In this document: piece by piece, positions 14,111 through 61,849 of the stretch | How the letters are laid out: each line of letters begins with the position of its first letter | Numbering within the stretch: the stretch's first letter is position 1 | Source: Candidatus Falkowbacteria bacterium | GTDB taxonomy: Bacteria > Patescibacteriota > Patescibacteriia > UBA11705 > JACRDX01 | NCBI GenBank assembly: GCA_043798985.1 | Contig: JAZDOE010000008.1 | Location: 2,332-66,331 of the forward strand | Reading direction: 5' to 3' | Length of the DNA: 64,000 nucleotides | Program-made: the position numbers and the translations under genes | Notes under the pieces: generated by a model | Databases searched by the model: none | The model's input: only the letters and a program-made list of their open reading frames with translations | Told to the model about the DNA's origin: nothing

Positions 14111-15847
14111 CTACATCATTTGTACTTCCTTTATATTTAATAATCGCAAACCTTTTGTCAATACGTCTTTAACGTTGTTGGATAAAAATAATCGCGCAGC
14201 CGCCAGCTCTGGGTTTTCGCCAATGACACGGCATTTTTGATAAAAATTGTTAAACAATTGTGACAAATCCAACAAATATTTGCACAAACCGCTTGGGTCT
14301 AACTCTATTTCGGCCTTTTTAACCGCGTCGTTAAACATTCCAATTTTCAAAGCCAATTCGCGCTCAATATTCTCAACCAGCAAATCCAATTTGCAATTCT
14401 TCTGCTTTAATTTAGCGGCAGATGCCTTTTCAAAAAGAGAGTTTATGCGCGCGATTGTATAAAGCACGTATGGGCCAGTATCGCCATCAAACGCAGTCGC
14501 CTTATCAATGTCAAAAACAATCACACTGTTATTTTCATATTTTAAAATCCAAAACTTTATTGCAGCCAACGCGAGTTTCGTTGAAACATCTTCAACTTGC
14601 CGCGTTGACCAATCTACATGCCGCGCGTTTGTTTCTGCTTTTGCTTTTTCCAAAACAGCGTTAAACAACGAATCAAATGAAACAACATTACCCTTTCGCG
14701 ACGCCATGGCGCCCTCTGGCAAAGTGACAAAATCATAGCTAACGTGCGCTTTTTCCTTTTTATCATAGCCTAGCAAGTCCAGCAACTTGAAAATTTGTTT
14801 TAAATACAATGACTGGCGGACATCAACTACGTAAATTGACTTGTCAATTTTATATTTTTCAAACTTTTTAATTCCCAATGGCAAATCTTTGGCGCCATAA
14901 AGAACATTACCGTCAGATTTTATCAAAACCAAAACATCCAAACCATATTCCTGCAAATCAGCTATTAACGCGCCTTCGCTCATTTTTACTTCTTTAATTT
15001 TTCCTTCCTTAACAATACGTGCTAACAATTTTCGCCCCTCTTTTTCCTCTGCGCTTTCCCAAAACCATTCGTCAAATTTATTGCCCAATATTCCATAAAT
15101 CTTATGAAAATCATCCATGCTCCATTTTTTTGTTTTTTTCCAAAGCGCTGTTGCTTTGCGCTCGCCAGCTTCCAAACGCTTTTGTACTTCAGCAATCTCA
15201 ACCATCAACTCTGGTTTTTCCGCCAACAAGTTAACAGCTTCAGAATAAACTTTTCCCAAATACTCCGCCTTATTTTTACCTTTTTCAATAATCAGCTTAG
15301 GATTATTTTTCTCCAAATACCATATACATTTTGCAACATGAACGCCTGTGTCGCCAATATAATTCGCAACAATCACCTTCTTTCCGGCTTCGCGCAAAAT
15401 ATTAACCACTGCCGCGCCAAGGCAGGCATTTCGCAAATGGCCGACATGAAATTCTTTGTGCGTGTTCGGCTGCGAATATTCAACCATAACCCTTTTACCA
15501 CCCGTAGAGACGAGATATATCTCGTCTCTACATTGCCTTGAACACAAAATTTGTTCAAGCAGCCATTTTCGCTTGAAAGTAAAATTCACATACGGCCCCA
15601 CAATCTTCAATTCCTCAATAAAATCTCCGCGCTTGTCATTTCGACCTCGCTTTAGCGAGGGAGAAATCCCTCGTAAAATTTCCGCCCCAACATCCATCGG
15701 AGACTTCTTCATCTTCTTCGCCAAATTAAAACACGGCAAAGCCAAATCACCCATTTTAATATCCGGCGGTGCGACAAAATCGCTTGCGCTGACATCAAAT
15801 CCCGCTTGTTGCAACAATTTTGCCAACTGTTCTTTAATTTTCTGCAT
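14111..15847 (-). CDS. argS: Arginyl-tRNA synthetase; the sequence carries two in-frame repeat insertions.
   Basis: HIGH-type motif EFHVGHLRNACLG and the DALR anticodon-binding C-terminus. Probable ATG start at 15847 (MQKIKEQ); the track ORF begins at a TTG at 15856. Confidence 0.9.
   Translation of the reverse strand: MQKIKEQLAKLLQQAGFDVSASDFVAPPDIKMGDLALPCFNLAKKMKKSPMDVGAEILRGISPSLKRGRNDKRGDFIEELKIVGPYVNFTFKRKWLLEQILCSRQCRDEIYLVSTGGKRVMVEYSQPNTHKEFHVGHLRNACLGAAVVNILREAGKKVIVANYIGDTGVHVAKCIWYLEKNNPKLIIEKGKNKAEYLGKVYSEAVNLLAEKPELMVEIAEVQKRLEAGERKATALWKKTKKWSMDDFHKIYGILGNKFDEWFWESAEEKEGRKLLARIVKEGKIKEVKMSEGALIADLQEYGLDVLVLIKSDGNVLYGAKDLPLGIKKFEKYKIDKSIYVVDVRQSLYLKQIFKLLDLLGYDKKEKAHVSYDFVTLPEGAMASRKGNVVSFDSLFNAVLEKAKAETNARHVDWSTRQVEDVSTKLALAAIKFWILKYENNSVIVFDIDKATAFDGDTGPYVLYTIARINSLFEKASAAKLKQKNCKLDLLVENIERELALKIGMFNDAVKKAEIELDPSGLCKYLLDLSQLFNNFYQKCRVIGENPELAAARLFLSNNVKDVLTKGLRLLNIKEVQMM
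15504..15531. repeat. Family B palindrome, copy B1 (GTAGAGACGAGATATATCTCGTCTCTAC), inside the argS CDS.
   Basis: Perfect 28-nt palindrome translated in frame as CRDEIYLVST. Related copies lie at 54489..54516 and 56058..56083. Confidence 0.65.
15645..15673. repeat. GC-rich double-hairpin segment (CCTCGCTTTAGCGAGG / CGAGGGAGAAATCCCTCG) inside the argS N-terminal region; probably another in-frame insertion.
   Basis: It encodes RGISPSLKRGRNDKRGD between the conserved ArgRS N-terminal blocks. Its GC content is far above the surrounding sequence. Confidence 0.35.
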
Positions 15848-15848
15848 A

Positions 15849-17171
15849 TTAAACAACTTTAACGAAAAACCGCTTGCCCTTTTGGATCACACTGCCCCTT
15901 TTAACAACAATTTCCAATGTTTCAATAACCTTGCCGTCAATTTTGACGCCTCCTTGTTCAATCGCGCGGCGCGCTTCTCCTTTTGATTTAACAAGCCCGG
16001 CCACCAGCAACGCGTCAGTAATATTCATACCTGCGACTTTCGCGTCAGGCATTTCATCTGGTGTTTCTTTTTTTGAAAAAGTTTTAATAAAATTTTCGCG
16101 CCCTGACACTGCTTCTTTTTCTCCATGATAAATTTTTACAATGGCTTCTGCCAATTCCAGTTTCAAATCACGCGGATTTTCCCCTCCTTTTAGTCTCTTT
16201 TCAACCGCGCCAACGCTTTCGGCCGGTTCTAACTTGCAAAGTTCAAACCCCGGAACAATCATTCCGTCAGTCCAGCTCATAACTTTTCCAAACATTTGTT
16301 CAGCCATATCATCTAACGTAATCATATTGCCCTCGCTCTTTCCCATTTTCTTTCCTGTTGTGTCAGTCAGCAATTTGTTCGCCAAAACGAATTTTTCTTT
16401 TCCTTTCATTGATTTCATCAAATCGCGGCCAACCAACATGTTGAACGTCTGATCATTCCCACCGATTTCACCATCAACATCCATCGCCACCGAATCATAC
16501 CCCTGCATCAACGGATATAAAAACTCATGCAACCCAATCGGGGATGGGCTAATTAAATCTTCAATCTTATCACAAGCCACGGCATGCAAACATTTTTTAC
16601 AAACACCACCGACTGGCGGAACAGTTGTTTGCCCCAACAAAATCAACTCCCCGCAATGTTCGCAAATCTTTTTCCAATGCATTCTTTTTCTGAACATATC
16701 ACGAGAAAGCATTTGTTGCACAGTAAAATGGCTCGCCAGATCAATAATTTCTTTAAACGTCAATTTATCCAACCAGTCGCCGTTGAATTTGATTTCAGCC
16801 GGATTTGCGCCGTCAAATTTAATCAAAGCGCTTGCTTGCTTTTTATAATTCTCACAATTTTTCAAAACCTGTTCGCGCGTCAATGGTTTACGCATTGCCA
16901 ATTTGTCAGTCGGGTCGCCAATCATTGCCGTAAAACTGCCAATCAACATTATTATTTTGTGACCCAACTCTTGAAACTGGCGCAACTTCATTAAACTAAT
17001 CGCATGACCAAGATGCAAACTCGGGCCAGTTGGATCAATGCCCAAATATATACGCAACTGTTTTCCTGATTTTAATTTTTCTTCTAAAAATTCTCGCGCC
17101 GGAAAAATATTTTCCACGCCACGAGTCAAAAGTTCCTCTATCTTTTTTGCATCTACGTTTATTTTGGGCAT
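15849..17171 (-). CDS. tyrS: Tyrosyl-tRNA synthetase carrying a zinc-ribbon insertion of about 45 aa.
   Basis: GIDPTGPSLHLGHAISL (HIGH motif), KMGKS motif and the C-terminal S4 domain are all present. The insertion HWKKICEHCGELILLGQTTVPPVGGVCKKCLHAVAC has a CxxC-x18-CxxC pattern. Confidence 0.9.
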   Translation of the reverse strand: MPKINVDAKKIEELLTRGVENIFPAREFLEEKLKSGKQLRIYLGIDPTGPSLHLGHAISLMKLRQFQELGHKIIMLIGSFTAMIGDPTDKLAMRKPLTREQVLKNCENYKKQASALIKFDGANPAEIKFNGDWLDKLTFKEIIDLASHFTVQQMLSRDMFRKRMHWKKICEHCGELILLGQTTVPPVGGVCKKCLHAVACDKIEDLISPSPIGLHEFLYPLMQGYDSVAMDVDGEIGGNDQTFNMLVGRDLMKSMKGKEKFVLANKLLTDTTGKKMGKSEGNMITLDDMAEQMFGKVMSWTDGMIVPGFELCKLEPAESVGAVEKRLKGGENPRDLKLELAEAIVKIYHGEKEAVSGRENFIKTFSKKETPDEMPDAKVAGMNITDALLVAGLVKSKGEARRAIEQGGVKIDGKVIETLEIVVKRGSVIQKGKRFFVKVV

Positions 17172-17177
17172 AAATTT

Positions 17178-20100
17178 TTACATTAAACCTTTTGTTTGTT
17201 CAAGAATCTTTTTTAATTTTTCTTTTGCCTCTGCCAATCTTGTTTTCTCCGCGGCGACAACTTTTTCCGGCGCGTTTTTTATAAATTCAACATTGCTTAA
17301 CTTTCTTTCCAGCCCGCCAATATAATTTTCCAAATTATCTTTTTCCTTTTCCAACCGTTGCTTTTCTTTTCCAGAATCAATCAATCCAGCAAGCGGCATA
17401 TAAATTTCAATTTTTCCAATAATTGCACAGGCCGCTTGCTCTGGCTTTCTTGAAACAAAATTCAAATTCTCAACTTTAGCTAACGCCTTTATTATGTTTG
17501 CCGCGTCTGCCAACGCCTTGCCACCAATAATTTCAATGTCGATTTTTTTTGCCAAATCAACTTTATGTTCAGCTCGCAAATTTCTTATTTTCGTCACAAC
17601 TTCAACAATCGCGGAAAATTCTTTATCAACTTTTTCGTTAATCAACTTCTTATCAACTTTTGGCCATTCCGCAACTATTAAATTCTCGCGAATGCCCCCG
17701 CTTGTCATCCTGAGGCTCTCGAAGGATGACCATATTGCCTCCGTCACAAACGGCGCGAATGGATGCCACAACTTCAACAAATCTTTCAATATACTCAACA
17801 AAATCGCGTCTTTGTTTTTTTCAACTTTGCTGATTTCCAAATACCAATCAGCAAAATCATTCCATGTAAATTCGCGCAACAATTCGCCTGCCGCAGAAAA
17901 ATTATATTCATCTAAAAACTTCGTGACATCTCGTTTTAAACAATTCAACCGCGACAAAATCCATCGATCTGCTAACGTCGCGCCTGTCATTTCGAACCCG
18001 CCCACGGCGGGTGAGAAATCCCTTGTAGTCGTCAGCACGAACCTAGAAATATTCCACAATTTATTAACCAAATTTCTGCATCCCTCAACTTTTTCTTCAA
18101 AAAATCTAATGTCATTGCCCGGCGTTGTGCCAATTAACAATGCCAACCGCGACGCATCTGCTCCATATTTTTCAATCATGTCCAACGGATCAATTCCATT
18201 GCCGCGCGACTTGCTCATCTTTTTGCCATTTTTATCAAGCACCATTCCGTGCAAATAAACTTTTTCAAAAGGAATTTCGCCAAGTGCAAAAAAACTCATC
18301 ATCACCATTCGCGACACCCACAAAGTAATAATTTCATAACCAGTTTCCAACATTTGCGTCGGATGAAACCTTGCAAGATCGCCGGTTTTATTCAGCGTTG
18401 AAAAAGTCCACATTCCGGACGAAAACCAAGTGTCCAAAGAATCTTCATCTTGCTTCAAATTGAACGAACCGCACGAGCAAACTGCCGGCGGTAATTTTAT
18501 ACGCACATCTTTCGCGTTGTCCGGATATGTTAATTTATAAATCTCCAAATCGCTCAAATTTGTATTAAATCCTTTTACCACACGGGCAACATCGCCATGC
18601 GCCACCGCCAAAATTTTCTTGCCTGGATATTTTTTCGCGACTTCATCAAAAAAGGAAAAAACTCGTGATTTTAAACTATCAAATGACTCAATGCCTCGCG
18701 GAGAGTCATGATGCCACGCTTCAAAATCTTTTTTGCGAAACGCGCCCAATTCTTTGTCAGATTTTCCCTCAAACTCACCCATACCAACCTCGCGCAACCG
18801 TTTATCAAAAATTATTTTCTTGATTCCCAATTTGCCTGCCACGATTTTGGCGGTTTCCTGCGCTCTCTTAAAATCCGATGAAAAAATAATGTCTATTTTT
18901 TCTGCAAGCAACTCTTCCGCGACGGAAACAGATTGCGCTTTTCCTTTTTCTGTCAAACCATTTTCTTGATTTTTTATGTCAGAATTTAATTTGTCTTCAA
19001 CGTTGCTGCGCGATTCGCCATGCCGCAAAACGATAATTTCCGTATTTAATTTTTCAGTCACTTTAACTTCATTGCATTTTTCGCAATACCAAACAGGAAT
19101 TCTATGACCAAACCAAATCTGTCGGCTGATGCACCAATCCTGCATATTTTTCATCCAATCCAAATATCTCTTTTCAAATCTCTCCGGAATAAACTCAATC
19201 GCATGTTTTTCAGCGGCTTCAATCGCTTTTTCTTTCAAAGATTTGTTGCCTAATTTTTTAATCTTTTTATCAACCGCGACAAACCATTGTTTGCTTGGCA
19301 ATGGCTCAATCGCTGTGCCACAACGATAACAAATGGATAAATTATTATCTATTTCTTCTTCTTTTTCCAACAAATTCTGCGCGCGCAACCTTTCAACAAC
19401 CATTTGGCGCGCGCCCAAAACATCTTTTCCAGAATATTCTCCAAAATTTTCTTTAATTTTTCCATTCTCATCAATTACTTTTACAACTTCCAAATTGTTC
19501 GCCCGCGCCATTTGCCAATCAACAATGGAATGCGCGGGCGTTACGCCGAGCGCTCCGGTGCCGAAATTCATATCAACCTGCCAATCACCAATGATTTTAA
19601 TTTTAAGCGGCACACCGACAAAATCAACGCTAAATTCTTTGCCAATATATTTTTTATAGCGCTCGTCTTTCGGATTTACCGCGACAGCAGTGTCGCCAAG
19701 TTTTGTTTCCGGCCGAGTCGTGGCAATTGTAATCGGAAAATTTTTATTGTATTTAAAAGTATAAAGTTTTGCTTTTTGCTCCTGATATTCCACTTCGTCA
19801 TCGGCCAAAGTTGACTGGCATCGCGGGCACCAATTTACCACTCGTTCGCCACGATAAATCACACCTGAATCATACATATCCGCGAACATTTTTGCCACAG
19901 CCTTTATCCGCGGCTCATCTAATGTAAAAGCCTGCCGCGACCAATCCAAAGACGCGCCCATTTTCTTTATTTGATGCAAAATGGTTGTTTGCGTTTCTCT
20001 CAAAAACTCCCAAACTTTTTCCAAAAATTTTTCGCGCCCCAAATCATGCCGCGTCTTTTTTTCTTCTTTCCATAATTGCTTTTCCACAACATTTTGCGTG

Positions 20101-20369
20101 GCAATTGCCGCGTGATCAGTTCCGGGTAACCACAGCGCCCTAAATCCATTCATCCGTTTGTATCGAATTATCAAATCTTCAATCGCCAAAGTCAACGCTT
20201 GGCCCATGTGTAATTTTGCGGTAATATTCGGCGGCGGCAAAATAATTGTGTATGGTTTTGCCTTTTTCGGCAAATTCAAATTGTCTGGATTAAAAAATCC
20301 ACTTTCTTCCCAATCCTTGTAAATTTTATCTTCAAAATCTTTGGGAATGTACGCCTTTGGAATCTCCAT
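17178..20369 (-). CDS. valS: Valyl-tRNA synthetase with an inserted histidine-phosphatase (PGAM-like) domain of about 200 aa.
   Basis: PNITAKLHMGQALT (HIGH), the editing domain and the KMSKS region are present. Between the two zinc-knuckle Cys pairs (WYCEKC ... CSCG) lies a full His-phosphatase fold with VLRHGESRSN and AVAHGDVARV. Confidence 0.9.
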   Translation of the reverse strand: MEIPKAYIPKDFEDKIYKDWEESGFFNPDNLNLPKKAKPYTIILPPPNITAKLHMGQALTLAIEDLIIRYKRMNGFRALWLPGTDHAAIATQNVVEKQLWKEEKKTRHDLGREKFLEKVWEFLRETQTTILHQIKKMGASLDWSRQAFTLDEPRIKAVAKMFADMYDSGVIYRGERVVNWCPRCQSTLADDEVEYQEQKAKLYTFKYNKNFPITIATTRPETKLGDTAVAVNPKDERYKKYIGKEFSVDFVGVPLKIKIIGDWQVDMNFGTGALGVTPAHSIVDWQMARANNLEVVKVIDENGKIKENFGEYSGKDVLGARQMVVERLRAQNLLEKEEEIDNNLSICYRCGTAIEPLPSKQWFVAVDKKIKKLGNKSLKEKAIEAAEKHAIEFIPERFEKRYLDWMKNMQDWCISRQIWFGHRIPVWYCEKCNEVKVTEKLNTEIIVLRHGESRSNVEDKLNSDIKNQENGLTEKGKAQSVSVAEELLAEKIDIIFSSDFKRAQETAKIVAGKLGIKKIIFDKRLREVGMGEFEGKSDKELGAFRKKDFEAWHHDSPRGIESFDSLKSRVFSFFDEVAKKYPGKKILAVAHGDVARVVKGFNTNLSDLEIYKLTYPDNAKDVRIKLPPAVCSCGSFNLKQDEDSLDTWFSSGMWTFSTLNKTGDLARFHPTQMLETGYEIITLWVSRMVMMSFFALGEIPFEKVYLHGMVLDKNGKKMSKSRGNGIDPLDMIEKYGADASRLALLIGTTPGNDIRFFEEKVEGCRNLVNKLWNISRFVLTTTRDFSPAVGGFEMTGATLADRWILSRLNCLKRDVTKFLDEYNFSAAGELLREFTWNDFADWYLEISKVEKNKDAILLSILKDLLKLWHPFAPFVTEAIWSSFESLRMTSGGIRENLIVAEWPKVDKKLINEKVDKEFSAIVEVVTKIRNLRAEHKVDLAKKIDIEIIGGKALADAANIIKALAKVENLNFVSRKPEQAACAIIGKIEIYMPLAGLIDSGKEKQRLEKEKDNLENYIGGLERKLSNVEFIKNAPEKVVAAEKTRLAEAKEKLKKILEQTKGLM
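17704..17730. repeat. Family A palindromic element, copy A1 (GTCATCCTGAGGCTCTCGAAGGATGAC), inside the valS CDS.
   Basis: Hairpin with stem GTCATCC/GGATGAC, translated in frame as ESLRMTSG. Related copies lie at 52292, 55329 and 56273. Confidence 0.65.
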
Positions 20370-20427: not shown

Positions 20428-21468
20428 TTGCTCTTTTTTTCCAAATCAGCTATCCTGAATGGATTTATGCTATCTCAAACCGCGAAGTTATTTATGTCAT
20501 CTCTTGCCAATGCGCAAGATATTTTAATTGCTTATCCGAATAATTTTGACGCAGACGCCGTTGCGGCGAGCATCACATTAGGGCGCGTTGCCGAAAAATT
20601 AAATAAACGTTTTAAAATCACGGGCAACGCGCCATTTATTCCGGATATAATTAAAACTTTGCCGCTTGGTGAAACTCTTTTTTTGCGACCAGATTCTTGG
20701 GTTGAACCACGCGATTTAACAAACAGCCACGACCTTTTGATCACAATCAACGCGCCAACAATATCCAGTCTTGAAACATTTTTTTACACCAAGCCCGGGC
20801 TAATCTATCAAACCCCTTTAGTCAACATTAACCATGGCAATGGCAATGAAAAATTTGGAACATTAAACATCATTCAGGAAGCAGCATCGTCTGTCTCCGA
20901 GATCATCTACGATATTTTAAAAGCCAGCGACAACACTTTTATGGACGAGAACATTGCCACATGTCTGCTTGCTGGCATGCTTTATAAAACAAAACGCTTC
21001 AAGTCAACCAGCATCGCAGGGCAGACACTTTCAACATTCAAACAAATCGTAGAAAGTGGCGCGCAAAAAAATGAAGTTTTCAAACATCTGTATCGCACAA
21101 AAACAATAAGTTCCATAAAACTTTGGAGTCGAATTTTGTTAAAATTAAAAATGAATCTCGCGGAAACAGTCGGCTGGGTGACGATTCAACAAAGAGACAT
21201 CGCGGAAACAGGAGCTTTCTCATGTGAATTTATTAATATAACCAATGAGCTTTTACACCTTACCCCAACGTTGCAATTTGTTATTTTCTACTATCAGGAA
21301 AACGATACGCCAACCGCGCTCGTAATCAACCGCTCGCAACACAATCTTCTGCGCGAACTAAAAACGTTCAACCCTATTGGGTCAAAAGACATTGTCAAAA
21401 TCTCTATACCCGACATGCCGATGCTTTTGACAGCAATGAACAAAACCGCATCCTTATCAATTTTGTAA
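20428..21468 (+). CDS. DHH-family phosphoesterase-like protein (NrnA-like); catalytic motifs partly non-canonical.
   Basis: ILIAYPNNFDADAVAASITLGRVAEKL resembles DHH motifs I and II. A DHHA1-like block NINHGNGNEKF stands where the GGGH motif would be. 346 aa. Confidence 0.35.
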   Translation: MLFFSKSAILNGFMLSQTAKLFMSSLANAQDILIAYPNNFDADAVAASITLGRVAEKLNKRFKITGNAPFIPDIIKTLPLGETLFLRPDSWVEPRDLTNSHDLLITINAPTISSLETFFYTKPGLIYQTPLVNINHGNGNEKFGTLNIIQEAASSVSEIIYDILKASDNTFMDENIATCLLAGMLYKTKRFKSTSIAGQTLSTFKQIVESGAQKNEVFKHLYRTKTISSIKLWSRILLKLKMNLAETVGWVTIQQRDIAETGAFSCEFINITNELLHLTPTLQFVIFYYQENDTPTALVINRSQHNLLRELKTFNPIGSKDIVKISIPDMPMLLTAMNKTASLSIL

Positions 21469-21729: not shown

Positions 21730-21806
21730 TGGTGGTCGCACCTGGGCTCGAACCAGGGACCTTTCGGATGTGAACCGAACGCTCTAACCAGCTGAGCTAT
21801 GCGACC
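21730..21806 (-). tRNA. tRNA-Val (anticodon CAC), with CCA encoded.
   Basis: Reverse complement GGTCGCATAGCTCAGCTGGTTAGAGCGTTCGGTTCACATCCGAAAGGTCCCTGGTTCGAGCCCAGGTGCGACCACCA. Confidence 0.8.
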
Positions 21807-22038
21807 TTTGTAAATATTTTTCTACTCGTTTCCTTAAATATCCTCGGCCAAAACCCGTTTTTAATTGTCGCTCCCTTTTCATTGCATCGTCCTTCACTAA
21901 ACATACCTCGTAATACGCCATCTCTATGCTCCCCATCCTGATCGTAGTGTGCGTTTTGCCCGAGAGATGCTCTGCCAATCTCCTTTCTAAGTTCCCTGTA
22001 CATCCAACATAAAACCTATCTAAATCTTTGCTATACAT
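21784..22038 (-). CDS. Small GIY-YIG nuclease-domain protein (UPF0213 / YhbQ-like, about 84 aa). Its reading frame runs into the 5' part of tRNA-Val(CAC).
   Basis: From the internal ATG at 22038: MYSKDLDRFYVGCTGNLERRLAEHLSGKTHTTIRMGSIEMAYYEVCLVKDDAMKRERQLKTGFGRGYLRKRV, which shows the GIY..YIG..R..H..E fold hallmarks. The stop codon is the TAG in the tRNA D-loop (GGTTAG). Confidence 0.6.
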   Translation of the reverse strand: MYSKDLDRFYVGCTGNLERRLAEHLSGKTHTTIRMGSIEMAYYEVCLVKDDAMKRERQLKTGFGRGYLRKRVEKYLQRSHSSAG

Positions 22039-22045
22039 ACCACAT

Positions 22046-22162
22046 ATCTTTTGCGCTCCCCGCCCAAAGCCCGAAGGGCATTGTGGCGGGCCCGCCAGAC
22101 TGCGAAGCTGTCGGCGGGTAACCAGCCCCAAGGGGGCCCCTTCGGGGCTGAGCTATGCGACC
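22046..22162. mobile_element. GC-rich structured element followed by a 16-nt duplicate of the tRNA-Val(CAC) 5' end. It forms the terminal portion of a tRNA-linked insertion.
   Basis: CCCCGCCCAAAGCCCGAAGGGCATTGTGGCGGGCCCGCC...CCCCAAGGGGGCCCCTTCGGGGC, then GCTGAGCTATGCGACC, the reverse complement of tRNA nucleotides 1-16. The motif is homologous to 44692..44897 and 46596..46672. Confidence 0.45.
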
Positions 22163-56897: not shown

Positions 56898-57512
56898 TTA
56901 CGCGCTCCACCACGCCGCAATGCCAGCGAAAAATTCCCGTATTTTAAATTTCCACATTCCTGAATAATCGCTCAAATCAGACGCCACGCCAACCGCGTCA
57001 ACGCCCAGTTTATTGCAAACATACAACGCTCGTCCAAGATGCGCGCTTTGTGTCACCAAAATCGCGTCATTGATTTTAAAAACATTTTTCAAACGGTTGC
57101 ACGTGTCAAAAGTTGAAAGTCCAAGCGGATCCAAAATTAAATTATCGCTTTTCAACCCATGCGTGACAGCGAAATTCACCATTGCTTTTATCTCGTCGTG
57201 CGTCAAATCTGCGCTATCTCCGCTCATTAAAATTTTTTTGACCTTGCCTTCTTTATAAAGTTCCATTGCCATTAAAATTCTGTCTCTCAAAAAATCCCCG
57301 GGCCAATCTTTAAACTTTAAGCCGGCGCCGAACACAACTGCCACTTGCTTTTTCGGCGCCGAATCAAGCGTATAAATTTTATCAGCAATCTTGCGGTTTA
57401 TTAAAAAAAGAATTCCTGCAACAATCAACGCCAATAAAAAAATCAAAAAAATAAATCGTTTTGCCCATTTTTTCCACCTTTGCGGCCTGATTGTCTGTAT
57501 TATGGGATCCAC
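56898..57512 (-). CDS. SanA/YdcF (DUF218) family membrane protein.
   Basis: N-terminal TM helix, then KQVAVVFGAGL...ILMSGDSADLTHDEIKAMVNFAV... typical of DUF218. Confidence 0.65.
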   Translation of the reverse strand: MDPIIQTIRPQRWKKWAKRFIFLIFLLALIVAGILFLINRKIADKIYTLDSAPKKQVAVVFGAGLKFKDWPGDFLRDRILMAMELYKEGKVKKILMSGDSADLTHDEIKAMVNFAVTHGLKSDNLILDPLGLSTFDTCNRLKNVFKINDAILVTQSAHLGRALYVCNKLGVDAVGVASDLSDYSGMWKFKIREFFAGIAAWWSA

Positions 57513-60436
57513 AGTTTGATTTTAACAATTTCTTCGTTGACTTTTACGTCAACATTGCCCTCGCCCTCTTTAATGTCACTCGCCAAAACCGATTCCTTAA
57601 GTTTTGCCAGCATTTGTCCGTCAGCCAACAAATCTTTCAGCGCAACGCTGTCCGTTTGGTAGCTGATGACAACGCGGTCGCTAATGGTAAGCCCCTGCTT
57701 TTTTCGCAAAGAATTAATCTGCCGAACAAACTCACGCAACAAACCTTCTTTTTGTAGCTCCGCGGAAATTTCTTGTGCCAAATTTATTGACGCTGCCGAA
57801 TCAGTTTTGAGTTTGAATCCAACTTTGTTGTTAATTTTTGCCGCGGAAACAACCTCTTTCACGTTCACCTCTTCGGCAATAATGTTTTCAATTTCCGTGT
57901 CTAACGTTTTTTTATTGGGTAAAAAATATTCCAACGTTGCCAATGGCTGCCGAACTTTTATTTTCAATTCTTCGCGGCTAGCCAAGGCCAACTCAACGAT
58001 TTTCCTCGCCAACTCCATTTGCCCCAAAATTTCATTTTGCGACTTTTCTAATGCTTGCCGGCCGAAGCCTTGGCGAAGGCTGGGCCAATCTTCAAGGTGC
58101 ACTGACTCACGCGCAGCCTCGACGTTCATTTCCAAATAAATATGCTCGCTCAAAAACGGGGTGAATGGCGCCATGACTAAACTCAATTTGTATAAAACAA
58201 ATCCCAGCGTTTTAATTGCATCATTTTTATCAACTTCATCCGTTCGTTTAAATCTGTCACGCGATCGGCGAACAAACCACGTGGAAAGTTCGTTGATAAA
58301 ATCGCCGATTGGACGTTCTGCGTCAGCAATATTATATTTTTCCATTTTTTCCGTTGTCTCGCGGATCAATAAATTCAATTTTGCCAAAATCCAACGATCC
58401 AAAATGTTTTTGCTTTTCGGAATCGCGCGTTCAACTTGAACTTCTGGTGCATACATTTTATAAAATGACAAAACATTCAACAAAATCAAAACGATCTTTC
58501 GGTAAGCTTCTTCAACGCACTTTTCCGAGAAACACAAATCTTCTGCCTTTGCTACTGGCGATGACATCAAATAATATCGCAAAGCATCTGCTCCGTACTT
58601 TTCAACAATTGCCATTGGATCTGGATAATTTCTTTTGCGTTTTGACATTTTTTGGCCATCTTCTGCCAAAACCGTACCATTCACAATGACATTTTTAAAC
58701 GCTGAACTTTTAAACAAGCCAGTACTCAAAACATGCATTACGTAAAACCACGCGCGAGTATGATCAACCCCTTCCGCGATAAATTCAGCCGGAAAATTTG
58801 CTTCAAATTTTTCTTTATTTTCAAAAGGATAATGAAATTGTCCGTATGGCATTGACGCTGACTCAACCCAACAATCCAAAACTTCCGGAACGCGTCGCGT
58901 TTTTTGTTGGCATTTGGGACACACCAACTCTATTTTATCCACAAATTGTTTGTGCAAATTTTCCACTTTTTTGCCGGACAATTTTTCCAATTCTTCTCGC
59001 GAACCAACCACAATCACCTCGCCGCACGCGCATTTCCAGACGGGCATTGGATTTCCCCAATAGCGCGAGCGAGAAATTGCCCAATCGCGAGCACCTTCCA
59101 GCCATTTGCCAAATCTACCTTCTTTAATATGTTCTGGAAACCAATAAATTTTTTTCGCCTGTTTTAATAAATCGTCTTTAATTTTCGTGACCGCGATAAA
59201 CCAAGATAATGTCGTGTAATTCAACAACGGCGTGTCGCAACGCCAGCAATGCGGGTAGCTGTGTGTATATTCTTTACTTTCAAAAACCAAACCTTGCTTT
59301 TGTAAATATTCAACGACCAATTTGTCAGTTGCCATTGGATTTTCTTTTGGCTTAACTTCAACTCCTGCAAAATCTTTGATCTCGTCAACAAATTTTCCAT
59401 TTTGCAAAACATGCTGAATAAACGGCAGATTTTTCTCTTTGCCAAGCAACATGTCATCCTCGCCAAAGGCCGGAGCAATATGAACAACGCCTGTTCCATC
59501 TTCAGTTGAAACAAAATCCGCTGTCACAACTTTGTACAAATTTTCTTTGTTCAACATGTCAACATTAACAAAATAATCAAACAACGGTTTATAACTTTTC
59601 TCGACTAACATTTTGCCTTTAAATTCAGAAACTATTTCAAATTCTTTTTCTGCAAAAACATCCGGCGCCAATACTTTGGCAACGATGTATTTAACATTTG
59701 GTTCAGACTTTTCAACAACCAACGCATAGTCAACATTAGCACCAACGGCCAAGGCAACATTGCCGGGCAATGTCCATGGAGTCGTTGTCCAAGCAAGGAC
59801 AAATGTTCCGGGTTGATCAACCAGCTCAAATTTTGCTGTCACTGACAAATCAACAATATCGCGATAACCTTCAGCAACTTCAATATTGCTCAAAGTCGTT
59901 TCGCACCGCGGACAAATATGCATGGATTTTTTGCCTTCGTAAATCAACTTTTTGTCCCAAAGAGATTTAAATACCCACCAGACAGATTCCATAAACTTCA
60001 AATCCATTGTTTTGTAATCGTTTTCCATGTCAACCCAACGCCCGATCCGCTCAATAATTTTTTTCCATTCTTCCGCGTATGTCAAAACTTTTGACTCGCA
60101 AGCTTCGTTAAATTTTGCCACTCCTAATTTCTCAATTTCTTGGCGGGAATTTAATTTTAATTCTTGTTCAACAATGTTTTCAATCGGCAAGCCATGACAA
60201 TCCCAGCCCCATTTGCGCTCAACGCGACGACCTTTCATTGTCCAAAAACGCGGCACAATATCTTTTATTGTGCTGGCAACAATGTGGCCATAATGCGGCA
60301 AACCCGTGGCAAATGGCGGGCCATCGTAAAAAACATAAGAATTTTTCGCGTCTCTTTGCTCAACCGACTTTTCAAAAATCTTATTTTCTTTCCAAAATTT
60401 CAATAATTCTTCTTCTCTTTTCTGAAATGGTGTCAT
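57500..60436 (-). CDS. ileS: Isoleucyl-tRNA synthetase, type 2 (eukaryote/archaeal-like, about 980 aa).
   Basis: PPFATGLPHYGHIVAS (HIGH), KMSKRKRN (KMSKS). Start at the internal Met MTPFQKREEELLKFW. Contains the family D insertion at 58059..58086. Confidence 0.9.
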   Translation of the reverse strand: MTPFQKREEELLKFWKENKIFEKSVEQRDAKNSYVFYDGPPFATGLPHYGHIVASTIKDIVPRFWTMKGRRVERKWGWDCHGLPIENIVEQELKLNSRQEIEKLGVAKFNEACESKVLTYAEEWKKIIERIGRWVDMENDYKTMDLKFMESVWWVFKSLWDKKLIYEGKKSMHICPRCETTLSNIEVAEGYRDIVDLSVTAKFELVDQPGTFVLAWTTTPWTLPGNVALAVGANVDYALVVEKSEPNVKYIVAKVLAPDVFAEKEFEIVSEFKGKMLVEKSYKPLFDYFVNVDMLNKENLYKVVTADFVSTEDGTGVVHIAPAFGEDDMLLGKEKNLPFIQHVLQNGKFVDEIKDFAGVEVKPKENPMATDKLVVEYLQKQGLVFESKEYTHSYPHCWRCDTPLLNYTTLSWFIAVTKIKDDLLKQAKKIYWFPEHIKEGRFGKWLEGARDWAISRSRYWGNPMPVWKCACGEVIVVGSREELEKLSGKKVENLHKQFVDKIELVCPKCQQKTRRVPEVLDCWVESASMPYGQFHYPFENKEKFEANFPAEFIAEGVDHTRAWFYVMHVLSTGLFKSSAFKNVIVNGTVLAEDGQKMSKRKRNYPDPMAIVEKYGADALRYYLMSSPVAKAEDLCFSEKCVEEAYRKIVLILLNVLSFYKMYAPEVQVERAIPKSKNILDRWILAKLNLLIRETTEKMEKYNIADAERPIGDFINELSTWFVRRSRDRFKRTDEVDKNDAIKTLGFVLYKLSLVMAPFTPFLSEHIYLEMNVEAARESVHLEDWPSLRQGFGRQALEKSQNEILGQMELARKIVELALASREELKIKVRQPLATLEYFLPNKKTLDTEIENIIAEEVNVKEVVSAAKINNKVGFKLKTDSAASINLAQEISAELQKEGLLREFVRQINSLRKKQGLTISDRVVISYQTDSVALKDLLADGQMLAKLKESVLASDIKEGEGNVDVKVNEEIVKIKLWIP
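58059..58086. repeat. Family D GC hairpin, copy D1 (CGGCCGAAGCCTTGGCGAAGGCTGGGCC), inside ileS.
   Basis: Hairpin AGCCTT-GGCG-AAGGCT, translated in frame as WPSLRQGFGRQA. Confidence 0.5.
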
Positions 60437-60544
60437 AAAAAAATGTAATTTGTAATATGAATACATAATACAAAATTTAGCGCTAAAAATCAACCTTAAA
60501 AATTTTGACATTTTTTGCGCAAAAACGGATAATAAATAAACATT

Positions 60545-61849
60545 ATGCTTCTAACAATTTCGTTAATTTTTCGCGCGATCAGTTTAATCAACATGCAGGC
60601 GGCCATTTGTGTTTTAATCGCGCTCTTACCAACATACCTGATTCGATTCAAACTTTTTGGGCTGCCGACAACATTCTTGGAAATAATGTTGATAATGGTA
60701 ATCGGCGGATGGATAGCGAAAAAATTGCTTGCGAAAAATTTTAAAAAATCAATCGCGGAAATTTTCAATAAAATTCCAAAAATCTTAAAAATCATTATCG
60801 GATTTTTTTTATTGTCCGCGACAATCAGCCTTTTCATTTCACCAAACACTTTGGATGCGCTGGGAATTTGGAAAGCGTACTTTATTGAACCAATTATCTT
60901 GTTTCTAATTTGTCTTGATGTTTTTCAAACAAAAGATGACGCGAAAAAAATCATTGGCGCGTTGGCAATCAGCGCGTTCTTTGTCAGTGCCATGGCAGTC
61001 GTACAAAAATTCAGCGGATGGTTTGTGCCTTACACTTTTTGGGGCAAAGATAACGTGTACCGCGTCACCAGTTTTTACGGGTTTCCAAACGCGATCGGCC
61101 TATACCTTGTCCCGATTTTTCCATTACTCCTTTTGAAACTAACAACCAGCTGGAAAAAATTTACAGCTGTACACAAACGAGAAAAAATAAAAAGTTTTGG
61201 CAAAATTTTTATTCTGATCTTATCAATCGCGTTCAGCGTGCTGGCCATAATTTGGTCTCATTCAACAGGAGCAATGGCCGCGATTATAGGCGGCGCTCTC
61301 ATTATTGCTTTACTAAACAAAAAAACGCGCTGGCTCGCGATTTTATTAATTATCATTGCAGGAGTTTTAATTTATTTAAACCCCGCGCCAAAAATCGTCA
61401 GTGAAATTTTATTGAAAGACTGGTCTGGCCAAGTAAGAATAAAAATGTGGCAAGAAACTTGGACAATGCTCAAAGATAATCCGATTTTTGGCGCGGGGTT
61501 ATCCGGATACCAAACAACAATCGCTCCGTATCACATCTGGCCATTCGTTGAAATATTCATGTACCCACACAATTTTATTTTAACATTTTGGTCTGAACTT
61601 GGATTGCTTGGATTGCTAAGCTGGATTGGTTTGTTAATATTTATTTTCAAACTATCAACGCGCACAGACAGAACAATCGCGCTCGCTGTAATTTGGAGCG
61701 TGTCCGCAATTATAATCCACGGACTGGTTGATGTTCCTTATTTTAAAAACGATTTATCAATTCTTTTTTGGTTATTATTCGCGCTGCTATGTTTATCTTC
61801 GCGGCAAAACGATCATGACCATCACGTCAACCTCATTCCCAAAAATTAA
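60545..61849 (+). CDS. O-antigen ligase / polymerase-like membrane protein (Wzy_C-type domain).
   Basis: 434 aa, polytopic. A periplasmic loop with SHSTGAMAAIIGGALIIALL is typical of the O-antigen ligase family. Confidence 0.55.
   Translation: MLLTISLIFRAISLINMQAAICVLIALLPTYLIRFKLFGLPTTFLEIMLIMVIGGWIAKKLLAKNFKKSIAEIFNKIPKILKIIIGFFLLSATISLFISPNTLDALGIWKAYFIEPIILFLICLDVFQTKDDAKKIIGALAISAFFVSAMAVVQKFSGWFVPYTFWGKDNVYRVTSFYGFPNAIGLYLVPIFPLLLLKLTTSWKKFTAVHKREKIKSFGKIFILILSIAFSVLAIIWSHSTGAMAAIIGGALIIALLNKKTRWLAILLIIIAGVLIYLNPAPKIVSEILLKDWSGQVRIKMWQETWTMLKDNPIFGAGLSGYQTTIAPYHIWPFVEIFMYPHNFILTFWSELGLLGLLSWIGLLIFIFKLSTRTDRTIALAVIWSVSAIIIHGLVDVPYFKNDLSILFWLLFALLCLSSRQNDHDHHVNLIPKN

Follow-up and report, generated by a model that had tools for sequence, protein, structure and literature searches.

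A predicted histidine phosphatase domain nested in the CP3 zinc knuckle of a Falkowbacteria valyl-tRNA synthetase, and its recurrence with class Ia synthetases across Patescibacteria

The subject of this report is a protein domain nested within valS, the gene for valine-tRNA ligase (valyl-tRNA synthetase, ValRS), on a 64,000-nucleotide stretch of DNA from a Candidatus Falkowbacteria bacterium (GenBank assembly GCA_043798985.1, contig JAZDOE010000008.1, positions 2,332 to 66,331 of the forward strand). This whole 64-kb stretch is referred to below as the window. The product of valS is identical to NCBI entry MFH0814759.1 from a Candidatus Falkowbacteria metagenome-assembled genome (MAG), and the feature is effectively hidden there because the pipeline annotation says merely "class I tRNA ligase family protein". 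The gene and its parts lie as follows (window coordinates; (-), reverse strand; aa, amino acids):

17178..20369 (-): valS, valine-tRNA ligase with nested phosphatase domain, 1063 aa, a single uninterrupted open reading frame (ORF)
19065..20369 (-): ValRS N-terminal body, aa 1-435, aligning to residues 1-426 of the Thermus thermophilus enzyme (1GAX); AlphaFold2 predicted local distance difference test (pLDDT) mostly 85-97
20199..20210 (-): HIGH signature, which in this assembly reads H54-M-G-Q57 (H57Q, codon CAA at 20199-20201)
19074..19085 (-): first zinc-knuckle pair of connective polypeptide 3 (CP3), C429-E-K-C432 (WYCEKC); the CxxC is kept in zinc-type hosts
18495..19052 (-): nested His_Phos_1 domain, aa 440-625 (Pfam envelope 445-620), supported by PF00300, AlphaFold2 and Foldseek
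19020..19025 (-): R449-H450 of the RHG motif, with H450 the predicted phospho-accepting nucleophile; R in 102/105 and H in 104/105 copies embedded in aminoacyl-tRNA synthetases
18864..18866 (-): R502, second phosphate-binding arginine, in 104/105 embedded copies
18789..18791 (-): E527, predicted general acid, in 103/105 embedded copies, the other 2 having Asp
18597..18599 (-): H591, second catalytic histidine, in 105/105 embedded copies
18471..18479 (-): second CP3 zinc-knuckle pair, C631-S-C633, with G after it; relatives show CxCG or CxxCG
17181..18464 (-): ValRS C-terminal body, aa 636-1063, aligning to 1GAX 435-856; Pfam Anticodon_1 and Val_tRNA-synt_C
18207-18221 (-): KMSKS, aa 717-721, intact

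Two NCBIfam equivalog models for ValRS score above their cutoffs on the host protein (NF004349, 1009.2 bits vs 704; TIGR00422, 948.2 bits vs 612.1), and both matches come in two stretches with the insert between them. The Pfam matches are tRNA-synt_1, likewise in two stretches (E=7e-131), His_Phos_1, Anticodon_1 and Val_tRNA-synt_C. The N-terminal body holds the first Rossmann half, the CP-core zinc site (C181/C184 and C347/C350), the CP1 editing domain, CP2 and the CP2-3 linker (DWCISRQIWFGHRIPVW), and the C-terminal body holds DTWFSS, the second Rossmann half, KMSKS, the anticodon-binding domain and a C-terminal coiled coil. In the CP1 editing domain, D284 aligns with the editing aspartate D279 of T. 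thermophilus ValRS, and both H280 and D284 are invariant across a 60-sequence alignment. A preliminary description of this DNA, made from the sequence alone, had taken everything outside the insert to be intact, which stands for KMSKS, the editing aspartate, the anticodon domain and the coiled coil but not for the HIGH signature, which reads HMGQ. Of 59 aligned relatives, 58 have HxGH at this position, P0122 and P0123 (80% identical) among them, and the HMGQ of the window ValRS could be either a genuine variant or a single-base error of the MAG assembly.

The insert interrupts the CP3 zinc knuckle between its cysteine pairs; 198 residues separate C432 from C631. The corresponding distance is 12 residues in insert-less relatives that bear the knuckle (e.g. 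P0155, WYCDDCGGITVSETDPAKCAKC) and 17 residues in T. thermophilus ValRS. In the alignment with the latter, query residues 1-438 match residues 1-426 and query residues 627-1057 match residues 435-856, and ~190 inserted residues take the place of a ~8-residue loop between the knuckles. The interval singled out in the preliminary description, 18465-19064, corresponds to ValRS residues 436-635. DTWFSS, which contributes to the amino-acid pocket in class Ia structures, starts 12 residues past the second knuckle, and DWCISRQIWFGHRIPVW, directly ahead of the insert, is homologous to the CP2-3 linker of yeast isoleucyl-tRNA synthetase (IleRS). Measured along the sequence, the two anchors of the insert are ~10-15 residues from the CP2-3 linker (tRNA-CCA pocket) and from DTWFSS. 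In yeast IleRS, the reveromycin/tRNA-binding pocket is lined by the CP2-3 linker (PMC7955072). The IleRS domain scheme defines CP3 as the region between CP2 and the second Rossmann half, a peripheral and structurally variable element that has a zinc motif in the IleRS of T. thermophilus (PMC7191050).

The insert matches positions 1-175 of the 194-position PF00300 profile with E=1.7e-35, scoring 122.9 bits (cutoff 21.7). When modelled alone with AlphaFold2 from a 30-sequence alignment, it reaches a pLDDT of 96.1 and a predicted template modelling score (pTM) of 0.92, and its first and last strands suit insertion into a loop. In the full-length ValRS model (pLDDT 88.4, pTM 0.79), pLDDT is 86-96 over the insert and 85-91 at the junctions. 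Foldseek searches against the PDB return small histidine phosphatases with TM scores of 0.77-0.81, E values of ~1e-12 to 1e-15 and a probability of 1.00; the closest folds are 6S2Q and 6S2R (mycobacterial hydrolases), Rv2419c (4QIH), PspA (4IJ5) and PhoE (1H2E), at 25-28% identity. The motifs of the catalytic core read RHGESRSN (R449, H450), SSDFKRAQETA (R502), RLREVG (E527) and AVAHGD (H591). By profile, motif and model, the insert is a complete histidine phosphatase, predicted to be catalytically competent, of superfamily branch 1, of the small PhoE/PspA type.

These results bear out the core of the preliminary description, namely that a complete histidine phosphatase sits in frame and internally between the zinc-knuckle cysteine pairs; Pfam, the cysteine positions and the 1GAX alignment agree on this. 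The PF00300 profile comparison and the AlphaFold2 modelling of autonomous folding that it had recommended both come out in its favour, and the two motifs it quoted, RHGESRSN and AVAHGD, are present. Its label "PGAM-like" cannot be narrowed to a mutase, as the insert scores below every characterised subfamily cutoff. None of the NCBIfam equivalog cutoffs is reached (dPGM_arch, 103 bits vs 225; CobC, 87.5 vs 162.9; PspA, 66.7 vs 350; GpmB, 61.8 vs 261), and the SixA model is not among the NCBIfam matches of the window ValRS. Assignment of the insert to one characterised phosphatase subfamily was considered and rejected, since every cutoff is missed and Foldseek points only to generic small phosphatases at ~25% identity.

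A histidine phosphatase occupies the same loop in 44 of the 120 closest ValRS homologues, which come from independent assemblies (NCBI, JGI, ENA, Logan). The source labels of the carriers include Falkowbacteria, Kuenenbacteria, Moranbacteria, Parcubacteria and Patescibacteria, and the hosts are zinc-knuckle and zinc-less ValRS alike. At least four phosphatase subtypes are found at the ValRS loop, with the signatures RHGEAxxN...LNSD (A), RHGQTDWN (B), VHGTT (C) and ARHGESEWN (D), the window copy being of subtype A. When the ValRS bodies are compared by neighbour joining, leaving out the insert columns, subtypes B, C and D adjoin insert-less sister ValRS, and in the tree of the domain itself they fall into separate clades with free-standing proteins interleaved. 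Both placements in these sequence trees suggest several independent acquisitions at the same loop.

Most type-A orthologues whose overall divergence is comparable share 44-58% identity with the window copy in the insert, compared with 55-65% in the catalytic core and 42-65% in the anticodon and coiled-coil domains. Because the identity of the insert is near that of the peripheral domains of its host, it appears from these comparisons to evolve under constraint along with the host. The borders of the insert carry only short chance repeats, direct or inverted (18300-19250 examined), and no step in GC content; no intein, Hint or endonuclease family was found in a Pfam scan of the window ValRS. 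The suggestion of the preliminary description that this might be a selfish insertion akin to the repeats elsewhere in the genome is not supported, given the lack of flanking repeats and of intein or endonuclease signatures, the near-invariant catalytic residues and the host-like divergence of the insert. Nor is the arrangement a peculiarity of this genome, as alignment with relatives shows it to be widespread in Patescibacteria and to recur in IleRS.

Histidine phosphatases account for 44 of the 48 large inserts at the ValRS CP3 loop. One of the remaining inserts, in the 1055-aa ValRS P0217, is an alpha/beta serine hydrolase (PF06821); as the body of this protein is nearly identical to that of the insert-less P0201, its insertion would be recent. 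Other large inserts of 95-195 aa lie in the same loop of P0148, P0157 and P0180 and have no Pfam match, and low-complexity runs of ~10-45 aa occupy the CP3 loop in further relatives.

The insert alone was searched against 1.84 billion (1.84e9) representative proteins, which gave 19,523 matches at E<=1e-3; the best 150 were examined. About 62 of these 150 are long proteins; with the phosphatase masked, these group into a single class Ia homology cluster, and all are IleRS or ValRS. In the IleRS copies, the domain ([HP]) lies between the two CP3 knuckles, in the order ...PIWKCxxC...[HP]...DLHRPYID...CxxCG..., and a minority of copies lie between DxWFxS and KMSKS or ~73 residues past KMSKS. Some synthetases (P0241, P0243, P0245, P0250 and P0260) have more than one phosphatase domain, 2-4 in all, either as tandem copies or spaced apart, with four copies in the ValRS fragment P0241.

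Scanning GTDB species genomes with an alignment of the free-standing relatives yielded 80 loci, nearly all from Patescibacteria, in which ORFs were called and labelled by BLAST as 51 free phosphatase genes (~190 aa) and 29 copies nested in IleRS. In 41 of the 51 loci, ileS directly follows the free gene. The gap between the two genes has a median of ~1-2 nt and is mostly between -8 and +10 nt, with many overlaps of 4 or 8 nt. As argS is usually found upstream of the free gene, the common order is argS-hp-ileS (hp, the phosphatase gene); in the first example locus, the precomputed Pfam labels read argS, His_Phos and a 938-aa class Ia synthetase gene. No nested copy is present in any of the 41 IleRS encoded downstream of a free phosphatase gene. 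The 29 loci with the domain nested in IleRS often have argS directly upstream as well, and the median IleRS length is 958 aa with a separate phosphatase vs 1165 aa with a nested one. The phosphatase is also fused to the C-terminus of ArgRS (P0268, L063). In the one Falkowbacteria locus with an insert-less valS that was checked (L083: DHH / valS / 126-aa ORF / pheS / pheT), no free phosphatase gene stands beside valS.

Several further architectures were observed among these relatives. P0331, an IleRS of 1066 aa, combines the phosphatase with a domain resembling REP-associated tyrosine transposases (aa 326-472) and a C-terminal GNAT domain. P0261 (579 aa) joins a QueC-like PP-loop domain to a phosphatase of the same clade at its C-terminus, and the PP-loop domain is a further partner whose chemistry yields an adenylate and pyrophosphate. 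Locus L035 contains two adjacent IleRS genes with a phosphatase in both. In L048 and L058 the IleRS is encoded as two ORFs, the break in L048 lying just past the phosphatase domain, and these are either true split genes or frameshifts of the respective MAGs.

On the basis of these architectures and gene orders, we read the domain as a member of a Patescibacteria-wide phosphatase clade dedicated to class Ia synthetases, which is proposed here. Its members would occur in four arrangements: as a free ~190-aa protein encoded upstream of ileS, nested in the CP3 of IleRS, nested in the CP3 of ValRS, and fused to the C-terminus of ArgRS. The separate-or-fused pattern, of the Rosetta-stone kind, together with the apparently recurrent nesting at homologous sites of two paralogous enzymes and the intact catalytic core, argues that the clade works with class Ia synthetases. 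We consider it probable that the domain is an active phosphatase functionally coupled to these enzymes.

What it may act on is a more tentative matter. The domain could be a phosphomonoesterase that works next to the synthetic active site and relieves the tRNA 3' end of a blocking group (a 2'/3'-phosphate, a pyrophosphate or a cyclic phosphate), and a tRNA freed of such a block would become chargeable again. The tRNA 3' end is preferred as a substrate because the tether points of the insert adjoin, in sequence, elements of the CCA/aminoacyl-adenylate pocket, and we offer this assignment as a working guess that is rather doubtful. One source of blocked ends is known from toxSAS toxins, which pyrophosphorylate the CCA end and thereby prevent aminoacylation (bioRxiv 10.1101/2021.04.30.441581; PMC11559606). 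It is conceivable, if not likely, that Patescibacteria possess an unrecognised tRNA-charging step in which a histidine phosphatase built into IleRS or ValRS, or co-translated with IleRS, clears phosphate from the tRNA 3' end or the KMSKS loop as an inherent repair or anti-toxin activity.

Several observations weigh against this interpretation. As the insert scores below all characterised subfamily cutoffs, its chemistry is narrowed only to phosphoryl transfer via histidine, and it could be a mutase. The domain has a median net charge of -2 for the ValRS copies and +1 for the IleRS copies, and this near-neutral charge lends no support to extensive RNA binding. The toxSAS toxin FaRel2 targets tRNAGly and tRNAThr (PMC11559606), and a phosphatase for tRNA ends in general would not have to be linked to the enzymes for isoleucine and valine. 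Many sister ValRS and IleRS do without the domain, which implies that it is not needed for aminoacylation itself. Since the CP3 loop accepts unrelated inserts too, its permissiveness would account for part of the pattern, and the trees are neighbour-joining trees of ~180 columns that are not robust.

The same permissiveness is the starting point of the main alternative, in which the insert is a passenger, that is, an unrelated housekeeping phosphatase or mutase (for example a phosphoglycerate mutase or a phosphoserine or general sugar-phosphate phosphatase) that has settled in a tolerant loop and is simply carried along and co-expressed with the synthetase. The serine hydrolase of P0217, the inserts of P0148, P0157 and P0180 and the low-complexity runs fit this explanation, as do the insert-less sister enzymes and the neutral charge of the domain; its best NCBIfam matches are metabolic enzymes (dPGM_arch, CobC, PspA), and its closest folds are small-molecule phosphatases. 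However, chance lodging in a permissive loop would hardly select histidine phosphatases of at least four subtypes for 44 of 48 large inserts, or place the same clade at the homologous site of IleRS and, in free form, upstream of ileS in 41 of 51 loci but never together with a nested copy, nor would it leave class Ia synthetases as the only long proteins among the best 150 relatives. Such a specific and repeated association is unexpected of an unrelated metabolic enzyme, and we regard the passenger explanation as unlikely, if still to be taken seriously. The domain might instead tend the synthetase itself by stripping an inhibitory phosphate, for instance a phosphoserine set in KMSKS by HipA/HipT-like kinases. 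The histidine phosphatase superfamily does include protein phosphatases (SixA, PGAM5, Sts), the insertion point is near synthetic-site elements in sequence, and KMSKS with its central serine is present in 56 of 60 aligned ValRS and IleRS. Precedent for the modification exists in two class I synthetases, GltX, phosphorylated by HipA at S239 (KLSKR), and TrpS, phosphorylated by HipT at S197 (KMSKS) (PMC6581861). Phosphorylated IleRS or ValRS are not known, however, the closest folds are again small-molecule phosphatases, and no kinase turned up in these genomes, for which no search for kinases was made; we judge self-repair of this kind to be improbable.

Two further explanations would remove the chemistry or the architecture altogether. 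Many domains appended to synthetases are non-catalytic, and the insert could in principle be a silent structural module that offers a tRNA- or protein-binding surface without phosphatase chemistry; the subtype C inserts P0132 and P0149, which read VHGTT and thus miss the first arginine, point in that direction. The five catalytic-core residues, each present in at least 102 of the 105 embedded copies, are unlike those of a pseudo-enzyme and make a silent module very improbable. That a phosphatase gene was fused into valS by an assembly chimera or frameshift could be suspected from the single MAG contig and the odd HMGQ substitution, and misassembly had been named in the preliminary description as a possible undoing of its claim. 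Both ValRS halves are in frame within one unbroken ORF, GC content shows no discontinuity at the borders, and the AlphaFold2 junctions are confident. The same architecture is found in at least 44 independent proteins of 50-82% identity from four data sources, the 44 of 120 closest ValRS counted above, and an assembly chimera is effectively refuted.

Other genes of the window that bear on this subject are the following synthetase genes:

15849..17171 (-): tyrS, immediately downstream of valS
14111..15856 (-): argS, sharing 8 nt with the end of tyrS; the gene found ahead of the free phosphatase gene in related genomes
57503..60550 (-): ileS, one uninterrupted ileS match of 876 bits; start codon not refined

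The window ileS contains no phosphatase domain and adjoins no phosphatase gene, and the single His_Phos domain in the 64-kb window is the one in valS. A window IleRS without the phosphatase fits the idea of one copy per genome, located in IleRS, in ValRS or in a free gene. The catalytic domain of the TyrRS is matched by Pfam in two stretches and contains a cysteine-rich, zinc-ribbon-like insert (KKICEHCGELILLGQTTVPPVGGVCKKCLHAVAC) at ~aa 166-205. Upstream of valS and divergent from it lies a DHH-family gene at 20428-21468 (+), which is also present at the insert-less Falkowbacteria valS locus L083 (6737-7879), a case of conserved synteny. A small ORF with a GIY-YIG nuclease domain follows at 21784-22131 (-) (Pfam E=2e-12) in a patch with a GC content of 0.48-0.51, compared with ~0.40 nearby, and could be the remnant of a mobile element.

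The nested phosphatase can be set beside several known systems. PhoE/YhfR (1H2E, 1EBB), PspA of H. thermophilus (4IJ5), Rv2419c of M. tuberculosis (4QIH) and 6S2Q/6S2R, small histidine phosphatases of broad or specialised activity, resemble it in fold, size (~190-210 aa) and the RHG/Arg/Glu/His core. Enzymes of the PhoE/PspA/Rv2419c type are free-standing and act on small molecules, whereas the window domain is nested in a synthetase and its clade is nested in, or operonic with, synthetases. Like the insert, the CP1 editing domain is a hydrolytic domain in a connective polypeptide of the Rossmann fold and is bracketed by a zinc-binding cysteine pair. CP1, however, is universal and ancient, has a fold of its own and hydrolyses mischarged aminoacyl esters, while the phosphatase is restricted to a lineage, resides in CP3, exists also as a separate gene and belongs, by prediction, to phosphoryl-transfer chemistry. 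A class Ia synthetase with an extra catalytic domain is already recognised as an "exception" family in ileS_w_GNAT (NF040702), where the additional domain is an acetyltransferase rather than a phosphatase. The RNase H/acid phosphatase of the Rv2228c type (NF005567) likewise unites a nucleic-acid enzyme with a CobC-like histidine phosphatase, and the insert matches its phosphatase half at 83-86 bits, far under the 326-bit cutoff; that protein is an end-to-end fusion with RNase HI, in contrast to the nesting seen here. A parallel in concept is the HD domain of the bacterial CCA-adding enzyme, which has phosphatase and phosphodiesterase activity in tRNA 3'-end repair. It too is a phosphohydrolase on an enzyme that handles the CCA end and clears blocking phosphates, but it differs in fold (HD vs His_Phos) and in host, and for the insert an action on tRNA is hypothesis only.

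Extra synthetase domains such as CP1, the GNAT domain of IleRS and the eukaryotic appendages are already known, as is the His_Phos fold, and the link of this fold to IleRS and ValRS is apparently new in that we found no paper on it. A targeted full-text literature search, with most subscription journals outside its coverage, returned no description of a phosphatase nested in, beside or operonic with IleRS or ValRS, and an earlier description is possible. Aminoacyl-tRNA synthetases are among the best-studied enzymes, and new catalytic domains in their cores are rare; CP1, the hydrolytic domain already familiar there, defines translational proofreading. If the phosphatase proves to be a passenger only, CP3 would be a natural and highly permissive site for whole-domain insertion in class Ia synthetases, useful for protein engineering. 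A second hydrolytic domain in two essential enzymes, alternating with a free gene upstream of ileS, suggests that a phosphate-removing step, so far undescribed, is tied to tRNA charging. If the domain proves to act on the tRNA end or the synthetase itself, Patescibacteria, a very large radiation with few cultured members, would have a previously unseen layer of translation maintenance or toxin resistance, and such a repair or anti-toxin activity would, if true, keep translation running in cells with minimal genomes.

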